Positions 29,393 through 41,237 are shown, counted from the first letter of the stretch. The stretch is DNA of 52,473 nucleotides from a virus (IMGVR_UViG_2541047750_000003:1-52473); one strand, 5' to 3'. The notes: generated by a model not told the origin, from the letters alone. Numbers and translations are program-made.

Positions 29393-29416
29393 TTTTTCGC
29401 GTAGCAACGCGTAAAC
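29393..29416 (+). promoter_or_regulatory. conserved element TTTTTCGCGTAGCAACGCGTAAAC (copy 1)
   Basis: 22 of 24 nt identical to 41214-41237; contains CGCGTA direct repeat; 22 nt upstream of portal ATG. Confidence 0.45.
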
Positions 29417-29437
29417 ATGTATTCAGGAGTAAACATT

Positions 29438-30808
29438 ATGCCATCCAATTTAGAATTGGCGGTTAATGCCGCCTTGTCACAACGCCAGGCGGCCTTTGCC
29501 CGCTATGCAGCAGCTAACCCATTCTCAATGGGTATTGATGCAAAACGTGATGCTGCGTGGAGTGAATACGGATTCAAAGAAGAAATCACCTATGACGATT
29601 TATACAAACTGTATCGTCGCGGTGGTATCGCTCACGGTGCTATTGAGAAGATCATTACTACGTGCTGGCGCACCAGGCCAACGCTGATTGAAGGTACGGA
29701 AGACGAGAAAGCGGAAAAGGAAACGTCGTGGGAAAGAGAAATCAAAAAACAATTTGATAATCGTTTCTGGCGCGTCATAGCTGAATGTGATCGCCGCCGC
29801 CTCATTGGTCGTTATGCTGGCCTGTTGATTCATGTCAGAGATAACCAGCCGTGGGATCAGCCAGTAACAAAAGGCGTAGGTATTGCCAAATTTACCCCGG
29901 TATGGGCTGGCGCTCTTACACCGAAGGAGTTTGAAGAAGACCCGAATAGTGAAAACTATGGCCTGCCTACATGGTGGGAATACAAGGAGCGCATTAACAG
30001 TAAGACCATAGCAAGAAAGATACATCCAGATCGCATATTTATCTTCGGTGATTATTCTGATGATGCCATCGCTTTCCTTGAGCCGTCCTATAACGCATTC
30101 GTTTCGCTGGAGAAAGTGGAAGGCGGCAGCGGTGAGTCATTCCTGAAAAACGCAGCACGTCAACTGGCTATCTCGTTCGATAAAGAAATTGATTTCCGTT
30201 CTCTGGCTGCAACATACGGTTGCGACGTTACAGAGCTACGCGAAAAATTCAATGAAGCGGCAGAGGATATAAATAAAGGTAATGATGTGATGATGGCATT
30301 ACAGGGGGCTACCGTTAGCCCGCTGGTTACTGCCGTAGCAGATCCTTCCGCTACCTATGACGTCAACCTGCAAACCGCAGCCGCTGGTATCGATATTCCA
30401 ACGCGTATCCTGGTTGGGAATCAGCAGGGCGAACGCGCATCAACCGAAGACCTCCGCTACTTCAATAACCGCTGCATGACCCGCCGTGAGGAAATAGGAG
30501 GCGAGCTTGAAGAACTATTCCGCAAGATGGCAGATCTCCGCCTTATCGGTATGCCAGTAGACGTATCTGTACTGTGGGACGACCTTAACGCCATGACAAA
30601 AGCAGAGCTACTTGACGCGGCATACAAAATGGCACAAATCAATCAGGCATGTCTCGCTACTGGTGAGGAAATATTCAGCGGTGACGAGATCCGCGAAGCT
30701 GCCGGATACGATGGCCCTGCTAGTGAGGTAGAACTGGAAGAGGAAAACGATGATGAAAGTGAAGAAGATAATCAGGCGAATACCTCCAGCCGCGATAATG
30801 CCATCTAA
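29438..30808 (+). CDS. portal protein
   Basis: 456 aa from ATG after AGGAG RBS (track ORF 29417..30808); follows terminase; acidic C-terminal tail. Confidence 0.6.
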   Translation: MPSNLELAVNAALSQRQAAFARYAAANPFSMGIDAKRDAAWSEYGFKEEITYDDLYKLYRRGGIAHGAIEKIITTCWRTRPTLIEGTEDEKAEKETSWEREIKKQFDNRFWRVIAECDRRRLIGRYAGLLIHVRDNQPWDQPVTKGVGIAKFTPVWAGALTPKEFEEDPNSENYGLPTWWEYKERINSKTIARKIHPDRIFIFGDYSDDAIAFLEPSYNAFVSLEKVEGGSGESFLKNAARQLAISFDKEIDFRSLAATYGCDVTELREKFNEAAEDINKGNDVMMALQGATVSPLVTAVADPSATYDVNLQTAAAGIDIPTRILVGNQQGERASTEDLRYFNNRCMTRREEIGGELEELFRKMADLRLIGMPVDVSVLWDDLNAMTKAELLDAAYKMAQINQACLATGEEIFSGDEIREAAGYDGPASEVELEEENDDESEEDNQANTSSRDNAI

Positions 30809-31694
30809 CACCGAAGACCCGACCGCGACAGGTAAGTTAAGGTCGGGAGCTATTAAGCGTTTTAAAGCCTGCCTGAAGAAAGTTGCGGATCCGTATATTG
30901 CCATACTGGACAGAATACAATATACCCTGGCTGTTAATAAAAAATACACCTTCCAGATCTACATCGACGAATTACATGATTTGCTGGAAGACGCCAGCGA
31001 CATGATTGATGAAATATTCGAGTTAACAGACCCGGAAAACTTCTGGTTCTGGCAGGAATACGTGAAGGTGGCATATCAGCGCGGCACTTCTCAGGAATAT
31101 GCCAACCTCGCTAACCAGTCAGTCACATATTCCAGGGCTTACCCTGAAGTGTCGGCGGTATTAACCAGTCAGACATATCGCACACGCCTTGCCCTGGTTC
31201 GTACCCGTGTATTTGAAGAGATGCGCGGGCTGACCGCACAGATCAAAAAGGATATGGCCCGACGATTAACCGAAGGGATGGCCCGTGGCTTAAACCCACT
31301 TGAAATAGCGCGCACATTGCAGCAGGAAACGCAATTGCCTCTATACAGGTGCAAACGTATTGCCCGTACTGAAATATGCACAGCGTTGCGCACAGCGCGT
31401 ATGGATGAGGCAGAGGCCGCATCGGATGAGCTTAACTTGCGCACTATGCAGATGCACATTTCGGCATTGTCGCCGACTACCAGGCTGTCACACGCACAGC
31501 GGCACGGAAAAACGTACACCATAGAAGAGCAGCGCGAATGGTGGAGTAGATCCCCTAATTCAATTAACTGCAAATGTAGCACGATTACCGTATTAGTTGA
31601 CGAAGACGGTAATATATTAAACGAAAGAATATTAGATCGGGCGCAAGAAAACTACAAAGTTGCGCACGCTAAATATGGCGAAGATTGGGAGTAA
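30798..31694 (+). CDS. head morphogenesis protein (Mu F / SPP1 gp7-like minor capsid protein)
   Basis: Position after portal; start uncertain (track ORF 30750..31694). Confidence 0.5.
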   Translation: MPSNTEDPTATGKLRSGAIKRFKACLKKVADPYIAILDRIQYTLAVNKKYTFQIYIDELHDLLEDASDMIDEIFELTDPENFWFWQEYVKVAYQRGTSQEYANLANQSVTYSRAYPEVSAVLTSQTYRTRLALVRTRVFEEMRGLTAQIKKDMARRLTEGMARGLNPLEIARTLQQETQLPLYRCKRIARTEICTALRTARMDEAEAASDELNLRTMQMHISALSPTTRLSHAQRHGKTYTIEEQREWWSRSPNSINCKCSTITVLVDEDGNILNERILDRAQENYKVAHAKYGEDWE

Positions 31695-31699
31695 AAACC

Positions 31700-32968
31700 G
31701 TGAATAAAGAGCTGATTCAGGTTAATACCAAATTAACCGCTAATACCATCCGCTGGGAAACATATAACGGGCGTGAACACATTGTGGTCCCGTCATATAC
31801 GTTGCCCTTCAATATCGTTATGAATCGGGAATATTACCCGGAAGCTGAAATCATTGCTAATTATCAATCTCTGGAAGGCACGCTCGCACCGCTGGGCCAT
31901 CCTACGGTTGACGGTGAATTTGTTTCCGCATTTAGCCCGGAAGGTCTGAATATTGGCTTTTGTGGAGCGTGGAACAGAAATGTTGAATTACGCGGCAATC
32001 GTGTTTATGTGGAAAAATGGGTGGATGTTGAAACCGCCAGCCATTCAGAACAAGGCCGCGAATTATTAAGCCGACTGGAAGCGCTGGAAAAAGGCGAAAG
32101 CAAAGATCCGATCTGGTCATCCGTAGCCGTATATCGTCAGCGTATGCCAGCCACCGAAGAAATGAAAGCCCAGGGTGCTGACAGCGTTGTCAAAATTATG
32201 TCGATTGACCATGACGCTATCTTATTGCACGAACCGCCTGCCGCATCGCCTGAACAGGGCGTTGGCCTGATGGTTAACACTGACCAGGCGAAGCCGTTAA
32301 TGGCGGTGGCAATGAAAGAAAACAGCTATCGCACGCTTGAAAGACAACTTGAGGAAGCGGCGCGTAAACTGTTCCCCGATGCAGATTATGTCTATGTTGT
32401 GGACTTCACTGATAAAGAAGTGACTATTGCCACTAACGCTGAAAATGCTCAAGTTTGCACGTATGAAAAACAGGCTGATAAAATAATTCTCAATAATGGC
32501 GAGCTTGCAACCAATGAGGAAGGTAAATCCTGGTTCGCTCAGTTCGCTGAACACCTATCCAATCTTTTCTCACTGAATGAAAAAATTAAGGCCAATAAAT
32601 CGGAGGACGATCCCATGCCTTTGACCAAAGAAGAACGCGCCGAACTGGTAAAAGAAATTAACGAAAGCATCACTGCAAATATGGCTAATGCAATCGCTGA
32701 AGCACTTAAACCAGTACAGGCAAGCGTTGAAGAATTACAGATCAACCAGAAAGCGATTAAAGAAGAGATCGCAGCAAACGCAAATAAAGAAGTAGCAGAA
32801 AAACGCGCCGCAGTAGCAAAAGTGCACGGCGAAATTGTTGCTAACGCATTAAATGGGGAAGCGTTAGAAGCAATGTTTAAATCCCTGGGCAACGCAACGC
32901 CGATGGCAACCAACGCAGCAAGCGAAGGTAAAAAAGGCGAAGTACCAGACTTTAACACTTATTTCTAA
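31700..32968 (+). CDS. scaffolding-like protein
   Basis: GTG start after GGGAG RBS (track ORF starts at a TTG at 31685); Ala/Glu/Lys-rich helical C-terminal half; located between head morphogenesis and capsid genes. Confidence 0.45.
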   Translation: MNKELIQVNTKLTANTIRWETYNGREHIVVPSYTLPFNIVMNREYYPEAEIIANYQSLEGTLAPLGHPTVDGEFVSAFSPEGLNIGFCGAWNRNVELRGNRVYVEKWVDVETASHSEQGRELLSRLEALEKGESKDPIWSSVAVYRQRMPATEEMKAQGADSVVKIMSIDHDAILLHEPPAASPEQGVGLMVNTDQAKPLMAVAMKENSYRTLERQLEEAARKLFPDADYVYVVDFTDKEVTIATNAENAQVCTYEKQADKIILNNGELATNEEGKSWFAQFAEHLSNLFSLNEKIKANKSEDDPMPLTKEERAELVKEINESITANMANAIAEALKPVQASVEELQINQKAIKEEIAANANKEVAEKRAAVAKVHGEIVANALNGEALEAMFKSLGNATPMATNAASEGKKGEVPDFNTYF

Positions 32969-40676: not shown

Positions 40677-40927
40677 TTATGCGCACCCTTCACCCCGCAT
40701 AACTTGTTGTAAGCGTGGTGCTCAACAATTAACCACACCTTCAAATCTTCACTGAACAGCCTCCAGTCGAGATTGATATCCATTTTGTAGCCATACCCAT
40801 CGCGTAACTTTTTGGGGCGCACCTCTTTATTTAAAAATGCTTTAAGCAGTTCCTTACCTTTCTTGATAATCCGGTCCTGTGCGTTTTTCTGTACTTTCAG
40901 GTTTTTGTCAATCGCCACCAGTTTCAT
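40673..40927 (-). CDS. RelE/ParE/YoeB-fold toxin-like protein (84 aa)
   Basis: Basic small protein; C-terminal YKMDINLDWRLFSEDLKVWLIVEHHAY resembles the toxin core strands; assignment tentative. Confidence 0.35.
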   Translation of the reverse strand: MKLVAIDKNLKVQKNAQDRIIKKGKELLKAFLNKEVRPKKLRDGYGYKMDINLDWRLFSEDLKVWLIVEHHAYNKLCGVKGAHK

Positions 40928-40944
40928 ATCTCACCCCATCATCC

Positions 40945-41100
40945 TTAGTTAAGTGCCTTCAGGAAGAAATCCCGGTATTCATCTTCCTTCGCATTCATCA
41001 TGAATTGACCGTATTTGAATGCGTCATCGAAACCCTTAACGATTGCTATTTCCACTTGTTCGAATGCGTTGTTCAGCATTACAACCACATAGCGTTTCAT
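40945..41100 (-). CDS. small protein (51 aa), possible partner of the toxin-like gene
   Basis: MKRYVVVMLNNAFEQVEIAIVKGFDDAFKYGQFMMNAKEDEYRDFFLKALN; GGAGG RBS; ends 17 nt before downstream start. Confidence 0.4.
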   Translation of the reverse strand: MKRYVVVMLNNAFEQVEIAIVKGFDDAFKYGQFMMNAKEDEYRDFFLKALN

Positions 41101-41213
41101 TTTGGGCCTCCTTCGTTGGTACTGCTTTTCTTCTTGCTTTCTATATACACCTTGTTACACCATGCATGAAGCCATATTGTAAACTAGCTATAATTATTGT
41201 GACTAATATCTCG

Positions 41214-41237
41214 TTTTTCGCGTAGAAGCGCGTAAAG
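41214..41237 (+). promoter_or_regulatory. conserved element TTTTTCGCGTAGAAGCGCGTAAAG (copy 2)
   Basis: 22 of 24 nt identical to 29393-29416; 32 nt upstream of M-like gene. Confidence 0.45.

Follow-up and report, generated by a model that had tools for sequence, protein, structure and literature searches.

We analyzed a 52,473-nt stretch of viral DNA (IMGVR_UViG_2541047750_000003:1-52473; hereafter, the window) that carries two copies of a 24-nt element, one upstream of the portal gene (site 1) and one upstream of an M-like minor tail gene (site 2). The window represents a temperate siphovirus of the mEp021-like (mEpimmI) coliphages, with ~84-90% identity to mEp021 and its relatives, a group described in 2025 as Nus-dependent but non-lambdoid (PMC11893012). 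Judged by sequence comparison, the element is a lineage-specific and probably cis-regulatory palindrome that occurs exactly twice per mEp021-like genome. We tentatively favor the explanation that each copy is a transcribed leader stem-loop read by one trans-acting factor, which would tune the translation or stability of the portal and M messages; this explanation ranks first, with a DNA dyad operator nearly as likely.

The site 1 core, TTTTTCGCGTAGCAACGCGTAAAC, spans 29393-29416 (CGCG cores at 29398-29401 and 29408-29411, variable center at 29405-29407) and the site 2 core, TTTTTCGCGTAGAAGCGCGTAAAG, spans 41214-41237 (CGCG cores at 41219-41222 and 41229-41232, variable center at 41226-41228), with both copies on the + strand, which is the coding strand of the downstream gene. 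An earlier note on this DNA had placed the two 24-mers at these coordinates and on this strand, as the sequence confirms, and had counted 22 of 24 identical positions, whereas we found 21 (positions 13, 15 and 24 differ). The CGCGTA direct repeat that it had described is real and recurs with a 10-nt period in both copies (29398/29408 and 41219/41229), but the element is better described as an imperfect palindrome or stem-loop, the inverted repeat TTTT-CGCG-N6-CGCG-T-AAA having been overlooked. Together with its flanks, the element forms an imperfect palindrome of 31-33 nt, (A)TTTTT-CGCG-TAGNNN-CGCG-T-AAA(S)AT. The corresponding predicted stem-loops cover 29389-29421 at site 1 (+ strand; outer A-U pairs, a U.C mismatch and a bulged U) and 41210-41242 at site 2 (+ strand; 10-11 bp, one bulged U and a loop of 4-6 nt). 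In both copies the TAG lacks a symmetric partner and a T faces an A at arm position 5, a conserved asymmetry that fits neither a perfect dyad nor a purely structural hairpin and suggests sequence-specific recognition of a directional object.

Overall, sites 1 and 2 were the only matches to a degenerate element pattern at three or fewer mismatches across both strands of the 52,473 bp, and none of 100 dinucleotide-preserving shuffles produced any match (chance expectation, 0). An unbiased repeat search recovered the same pair (family D14), with the similarity extending over 33 nt at 85% identity (29393-29425 and 41214-41246). The window contains 288 CGCG tetramers against 280 expected, which rejects CGCG avoidance or a methylation signal, and only two pairs of them are spaced as CGCG-N6-CGCG, namely those of sites 1 and 2. 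Further or degenerate copies were found neither in the window nor in the first 50 kb of mEp021. The arm sequence is common to both paralogous copies and the flanks of the two sites are unrelated, a combination that argues for one common recognizing factor.

Relatives for comparison were gathered by three DNA-pattern and two protein-anchored scans of IMG/VR, together with E. coli prophages, yielding ~39 distinct sequences at site 1 and 27-35 at site 2. The element was present at homologous positions in ~50 related viral contigs and prophages from these two sources, and mEp021 has both copies where the window does. Arms at site 1 were invariant in 48 of 49 related contigs, and the site 2 element was kept in all 30 close M-gene loci, in mEp021 and in three E. 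coli prophages. The element was carried by all contigs whose portal reached at least 83% identity or whose M protein reached at least 84%. At site 1, nucleotide diversity was 0.003 in the arms and 0.068 in the center, compared with 0.135 in the 15 nt upstream and 0.25 at third codon positions of the portal gene; the 21 nt from the element to the portal ATG were as fixed as the arms (0.010), such that conservation runs unbroken into the ribosome-binding site. Among distinct site 2 sequences, diversity was 0.018 in the arms, 0.20 in the three-base center and 0.22 in the 19 nt upstream, with 0.34 at third and 0.057 at first and second codon positions of the M gene (0.04-0.06 at first and second positions of the adjacent genes generally). 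The non-coding element is thus under strong, position-specific purifying selection. Two mechanical open reading frames (ORFs) overlap site 2 (41043-41225, +; 41203-41535, -), and coding by either is ruled out by insertions and deletions in the T-run and in the center.

Variants of the element were rare. The arm changes at site 2 were single transitions (C to T in the left core, C to T in the right core and G to A in the left core), and the arm variant at site 1 was one T to C at the mismatched T. Two contigs (L244/L245) lacked 1 nt of the center or loop, and a variant with the center AGCTA (L098/L337) forms a nearly perfect dyad.

Conservation, which the earlier note had claimed, therefore holds at homologous positions in every close relative examined but ends at the edge of the mEpimmI group. 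Across 47 prophage loci with portal homologs at 34-62% identity (Enterobacter, Citrobacter, Bordetella and others), the gap between the large terminase (TerL) gene and the portal gene was 15-30 nt and held no related motif, and 50 lambda-like M loci at 72% identity or less were without the element. Scanning IMG/VR for TTCGCGTN5CGCGTAA returned mEpimmI contigs plus unrelated, chance-like matches that mostly appear to be coding. Because it is missing from portal homologs at up to 62% and M homologs at up to 72% identity, the element is, on these comparisons, specific to the mEpimmI lineage.

The same data bear on whether the element has any regulatory role, as opposed to being a short conserved linker, used as a junction for homologous recombination between modules, or the remnant of a duplication. 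The histories of the site 1 flanks are partly uncoupled: one relative (L346) matches the window at 89.7% identity in the left flank and at 97.5% in the right flank, and genomes differ in whether they carry an insertion next to the element. Center types have also been swapped between sites, with AGAAG found at site 1 (L308/L348) and AGCAA at site 2 (L238), and in one contig an HNH homing endonuclease has inserted beside site 2. However, 24 nt is at or below the minimum useful for RecA-dependent exchange, and the element combines fixed arms with a free center and fast-evolving flanks under a constraint exceeding that at non-synonymous codon positions. This pattern implies direct selection on the sequence, which mosaic junctions and center swaps cannot explain, and we regard a linker or relic as the least probable of the explanations considered.

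The element lies close to the translation start at both sites. Site 1 is located between TerL (27775-29289, +) and the portal gene (PF06381; 29438-30808, +) and ends 21 nt before the portal ATG and 8 nt before the Shine-Dalgarno (SD) sequence AGGAG (29425-29429), which is contained in the leader running from the element to the start codon (29417-29437, +). The portal start at 29438 is backed by this SD and by the N termini of homologs; the in-frame ATG at 29417 lacks an SD. At site 2, the element ends 31 nt before the ATG of the M-like gene (PF05939; 41269-41622, +) and 22 nt before its SD, GGAGGG (41260-41265). The earlier note's placement of both copies 20-35 nt ahead of structural gene starts was accurate, as was its description of the gaps as unusually long (148 nt between TerL and portal; 168 nt in the divergent gap before M). 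Nineteen nucleotides upstream of the site 2 element lies an invariant TATAAT (41189-41194), and a rightward M promoter region is predicted from sequence at 41172-41194 (+; CCATATTGTAAACT at 41172-41185). If this promoter is used, the element would occupy about +13 to +45 of the transcript. A terminator scan found no terminator-like site between TerL and the portal gene. We favor a transcribed leader because the element sits 21 or 31 nt before an ATG with the SD in between, because TATAAT lies upstream of it at site 2 and because no terminator separates TerL from portal.

That the element is conserved, non-coding and probably regulatory ahead of two structural genes, as had been proposed, is supported, but the element itself implies no transcription start, since there is no room for a promoter at the portal site and the conserved -10 lies upstream of the element at the M site. 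A sigma-70 promoter was rejected, as a consensus scan showed no + strand -35/-10 pair using the element. At site 1, the 21 nt to the ATG include the SD and leave no space for a -10, a start and an SD leader, and the element at site 2 comes after the conserved TATAAT. An intrinsic terminator was also rejected: the T-run precedes the hairpin on the + strand, the A-run follows it on the - strand and neither site appeared in the terminator scan.

A related explanation, which we consider quite improbable in both of its versions taken together, makes the element an activator site within a promoter, with the palindrome replacing a rightward -35 in the manner of lambda CII or P1 Lpa-type late promoters or, in the leftward version, lying at about -57 of leftward promoters, one for the divergent ParE-like module (site 2) and the other a putative antisense promoter that would cover the stop codon of TerL (site 1). 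Lambda CII sites read TTGC-N6-TTGC, and CGCG-N6-CGCG has the same tetrad-N6-tetrad layout. Site 2 is also followed, 10 nt downstream, by TACAAT (41243-41248), and on the minus strand of both sites CGCG-AAAAA-N10/11 is followed by a -35 position and, after a further 16-17 nt, by TACAAA or TAAAAT in relatives without the site 1 insertion. However, the site 2 TACAAT is not conserved (TGCAAT, CACAAT and TTCGAT occur) and the equivalent position at site 1 is the SD, so that a rightward -10 and start within the 21 nt to the ATG would remove the SD from the message; no rightward promoter from the sigma-70 scan makes use of the element. At site 1, a 70-nt insertion carried by the window and ~30% of its relatives disrupts the leftward arrangement, which led us to reject an antisense promoter there; the -35 region of this arrangement is the most variable stretch (0.135) and its -10 is TerL coding sequence.

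Under the leader stem-loop explanation, the site 1 element would be transcribed within the TerL-portal intercistronic RNA and the site 2 element in a 5' leader from the conserved upstream promoter. In the folded RNA, U-A and U-G pairs would extend a stem of four G-C pairs, one U would bulge out and the loop would start with UAG; one sequence-specific factor, of phage or host origin, would recognize this stem-loop after transcription initiation. Such a factor would set the translation or stability of both downstream messages and thereby co-regulate the two units. We infer the transcription of the element, the hairpin in vivo, the binding of the factor and the direction of the effect.

Folding of the site 2 leaders is consistent with this explanation. 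RNAalifold, applied to 19 distinct site 2 leaders, predicted a stem of 10 bp in which six pairs are of the A/U type and four are G-C, one U being bulged. Of the cells of this consensus stem, 98.9% were paired on the + strand (two cells broken), and the five pairs that vary did so only by one-sided, wobble-compatible changes (A-U/G-U, U-A/U-G, C-G/U-G and G-C/G-U). The site 2 hairpin of the window reached -9.6 kcal/mol (z -2.0) on the + strand versus -5.0 on the - strand, and that of mEp021 reached -11.2 kcal/mol (z -3.0). The 1-nt deletion variant provides a further hint of RNA, as it would change only the size of a hairpin loop but would put the two halves of a DNA dyad out of phase by 1 bp.

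Several observations weigh against an RNA stem-loop. At site 1 the hairpin is weak and gains nothing on the + strand relative to the - strand (-6.2 versus -7.2 kcal/mol, z -0.9). None of the ten pairs showed two-sided compensatory substitutions, with shuffle controls uninformative because of too little variation, and pairing is broken by a G-to-A change in prophage N1286 and by a G-to-U change. The stem is held constant in sequence and not just in pairing, and the loop varies freely in its 3' half, which is the opposite of the pattern in the phage's own boxB hairpins. The hairpin lies 8 nt (site 1) or 22 nt (site 2) upstream of the SD and does not overlap it, making simple occlusion of the ribosome-binding site not obvious, and we identified no candidate binding factor for the element. 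Finally, fixed arms, a free center and cores one helical turn apart are what is classically seen at DNA sites bound by dimeric proteins.

Most of these points speak for the rival explanation of a DNA dyad operator, in which a 22-bp TTTWCGCG-N6-CGCGWAAA would be bound as a duplex by a dimeric or tandem phage or host regulator. The bound protein would act as a stoperator-like roadblock or post-initiation repressor, keeping portal and M silent in the lysogen or in early infection. We consider this possible: the arms are fixed in sequence in both copies and in all lineages around a free 3-nt center, the CGCG cores are exactly 10 bp apart in a 4-6-4 dyad with A/T flanks like those of CRP-type sites, and the AGCTA-center variant comes close to a perfect dyad. 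The right-hand repeats (GTAGA-N5-GTAAA and GTAGC-N5-GTAAA) also resemble the CpxR box, GTAAA-N5-GTAAA, which is a lead and not a test. The conserved asymmetry described above is unfavorable to a DNA dyad, as are the altered half-site spacing in the 1-bp deletion variant and the presence of only two sites per genome, neither of which overlaps a -35 or -10. In addition, no regulator could be assigned, the divergent gene pair at site 2 more plausibly uses a different palindrome at its own promoter, and the + strand bias of the pairing is left unexplained.

Both the leader stem-loop and the DNA dyad could be part of a broader proposal, which we think unlikely, that a dedicated post-initiation regulator has the two copies as its only operators and couples the synthesis of portal, the initiator of head assembly, to that of M, the initiator of the tail tip. 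Such a regulator would be either a translational repressor acting on the RNA stem-loop or a stoperator-like DNA roadblock.

In another candidate explanation, each copy is an orphan boxB that would provide an extra loading site for the N-like antiterminator Gp17 and allow read-through of the strong downstream terminators at 34495, 36835, 37541 and 41824. The element shares with the phage's boxB hairpins a G/C stem of 4-5 bp, a purine-rich loop and U-A/U-G closure, and one variant has the loop GGAA, as in nutR1. Site 2 lies ~40 nt downstream of a promoter motif, CCATTTTGTAWACT, that also precedes nutL and nutR2, and terminators follow both sites. The phage's own nut sites are readable at 16587-16626, 7862-7900 (-) and 9119-9160, with the boxA GCTCTTTAAAAATCCGG at nutL and nutR2 and CGCTCATTAACAA at nutR1, and their boxB has the form CGC-U-GNRA-W-GCG, the outer pair of nutR2 covarying across contigs (G-U, C-G and A-U). 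Neither boxA was found at site 1 or site 2, which rejects a nut site; there is a weak CTCATT resemblance at site 2 only. The loops of the element (AGAA, AGCA, AGAG, GGAA, AGCT, AGCG or hexaloops) mostly follow ANNA rather than GNRA and vary among close relatives, whereas the true boxB loops GAAA, GCGA and GCAA, which served as a positive control, are invariant in the same IMG/VR contigs, and on this ground we rejected boxB. Conserved A-rich boxB loops have been reported (PMC11893012). The late region, which three leftward gene cassettes interrupt, has a lambda-type Q (PF03589) at the center of its organization, and this Q should already render late transcription terminator-resistant. An orphan boxB is therefore very doubtful. 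More generally, the covariance models of Rfam 15 gave no match at gathering score anywhere in the window and only chance-level matches (E 0.76-8.8) around the two sites.

Comparison with known systems places the element near, but not within, several classes. The closest analog in architecture and in state of knowledge is the extended start-associated sequence-type repeat known as ESAS in Cluster K mycobacteriophages (PMC3203893): like ESAS, the element is a lineage-specific imperfect inverted repeat with a variable spacer, in one orientation, repeated just upstream of the ribosome-binding sites of particular genes. Conservation of ESAS follows the gene family throughout, and no function has been established for them, a host or phage factor being the suspected binder; the deviations seen in their two arms lend no support to simple RNA pairing (PMC3203893). 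They have 17-bp arms, occur in many copies (at about half of ~15-20 SAS sites) in the non-structural half of the genome and are coupled to the 13-bp SAS GGGATAGGAGCCC, which contains the SD and lies 3-7 bp from the start codon (PMC3203893). In contrast, the element has two copies, arms of 8-11 nt, structural target genes, a separate SD, no sequence similarity to ESAS and an unrelated host. We found no 13-bp GGGATAGGAGCCC, and with the element 21 or 31 nt from the ATG and apart from the SD it does not belong to the SAS/ESAS class, to which its architecture is merely analogous.

In position and possible action, the nearest analogs are the stoperators of Cluster A mycobacteriophages (PMC9283540, PMC6550527), which are likewise short conserved sites in gaps of the structural or late region, oriented with transcription. 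Stoperators act after initiation, with repressor binding blocking elongation, and are 13-bp asymmetric sites present in ~20-35 copies per genome and bound by a monomeric immunity repressor (PMC9283540, PMC6550527). The element differs in being palindromic, and its two copies per genome place it outside the stoperator class.

With boxB of lambda and of the phage's own nutL, nutR1 and nutR2, the element shares a small G/C stem-loop and purine-rich loop in a transcribed leader, but it has no boxA, its loop is neither GNRA nor conserved and its stem is fixed instead of covarying. Its layout of 4-6-4 or 5-6-5, with cores one helical turn apart, a free 6-bp center and A/T-rich flanks, recalls CRP-type 22-bp dyads and lambda CII sites. 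Those sites are positioned relative to a promoter (-41.5, -61.5 or straddling -35), whereas the element has no consistent promoter-relative position at its two sites. In the leader stem-loop explanation, the element would resemble the Mu Com-mom and T4 gp32, gp43 and RegA operators as a phage leader hairpin bound by a phage protein to control late-gene translation. These operators overlap or abut the SD or start codon and control one gene; the element, unlike them, ends 8-22 nt short of the SD and has copies ahead of two unrelated genes.

The surroundings of site 1 vary within the group. A 70-nt insertion between the TerL stop codon and the element (29290-29360) occurs in the window and in ~30% of relatives, extending the TerL-portal gap to 148 nt from the 78 nt of mEp021, which lacks it; the insertion holds a perfect palindrome, CTTCGAAAAATTTTCGAAG (29308-29326), and a mini-ORF of ten codons. 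In mEp021 (MH706966, from 28919; L001, 2048-2090), the portal is annotated from an ATG directly after the element, with the 'RBS' inside the ORF. All other relatives have the portal ATG 21 nt further on, after AGGAG, where mEp021 has ATA followed by TTG, and this TTG is probably the real mEp021 start. NCBI gives many PF06381 portal homologs the name 'anti-CBASS protein Acb1 family', apparently an artifact of annotation.

Site 2 adjoins a leftward gene pair (40673-41100, -) whose first gene specifies a 51-aa protein (phrog_29810, no known fold family) and whose second specifies a ParE-like toxin (PF24732). The pair is conserved across the group inside the tail-gene region and is likely, from its gene content, to be a toxin-antitoxin cassette. 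Its promoter-like site, GTCACA-16-TACAAT (41176-41203, -), overlaps the rightward region of TATAAT and CCATATTGTAAACT, the predicted promoter of the M gene, and is covered by a lineage-variable palindrome around GTGAC that differs from the element. A toxin-antitoxin operator was rejected as the identity of the element, which starts 10 nt upstream of the -35 of the ParE module and has a second copy 11.8 kb away with no toxin-antitoxin genes. As regulators binding the element, the 51-aa partner belongs to no recognizable DNA-binding family, and autoregulation by the gp70-like protein encoded downstream of M (41622-41819) was rejected because that protein is very acidic. A terminator-like hairpin that would act in both directions (41824-41844) closes the short M-gp70 unit. 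A CRP site beside site 2 (TGTGA-N6-TCTCA) was rejected, having no counterpart at site 1, as was pairing of upstream TCTC or TTCT with the SD, which would form at most four weak, non-conserved pairs. In L163 (IMGVR_UViG_2695420423_000006, minus strand near 8717), the inserted gene, for a 157-aa HNH/AP2-type homing endonuclease, lies between the site 2 element and M, such that the leader with promoter and element now precedes the endonuclease gene and M retains its own SD.

Other repeated motifs were observed in the window. The motif CCATTTTGTAWACT (reverse complement, T[T/A]TACAAAATGG) had 20 matches at two or fewer mismatches versus 9.4 expected, including 7980-7991, 8823-8834, 16492-16503, 16559-16570, 38245-38256, 38273-38284, 41172-41183, 43071-43082, 43108-43119 and 50318-50389. 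It occurs in many of the regulatory gaps inspected and points toward the downstream genes at nutL, nutR2, tape-measure, M, L and a leftward cassette, and probably serves as a promoter specific to this phage (-10 TAWACT), as a repressor operator or as both. This motif is probably what the earlier note counted as the first conserved element. An 18-nt direct repeat, TAAAGCCGTATTTGTGGG, occurs at 23724-23741, 23974-23991 and 24164-24181, with two exact copies and one at 83%; the exact copies flank a small gene (23737-23976), and a tR'-like terminator (24041-24059) and the lysis genes follow closely downstream. The repeat could mark where a gene cassette was inserted, or it could belong to the late-promoter region. 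Longer repeats were found within a leftward ORF (5148-6071; three tandem copies of ~173-200 nt at 5502-6061) and within the J-like tail-fiber gene (45108-49943; several repeats of 108-nt period at 48111-48847).

Phages of the mEpimmI group are as common as lambdoid phages in human fecal E. coli isolates, and a new family was proposed for them in 2025 (PMC11893012). The description of the group makes no mention of the element or of any late promoter (PMC11893012), and late-gene control in these phages is uncharted beyond an N-like and a Q-like antiterminator. The kind of element is unsurprising, as lineage-specific operators and hairpins are abundant in phages, but it would give the poorly understood class of repeated leader palindromes, to which ESAS and stoperators belong, an enterobacterial representative. 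Should the proposed coupling of portal and M prove true, it would constitute a head-tail co-ordination circuit of a kind not known to have been described for any coliphage. The element offers a concrete, testable handle on how the mEpimmI family sets its structural-gene output.

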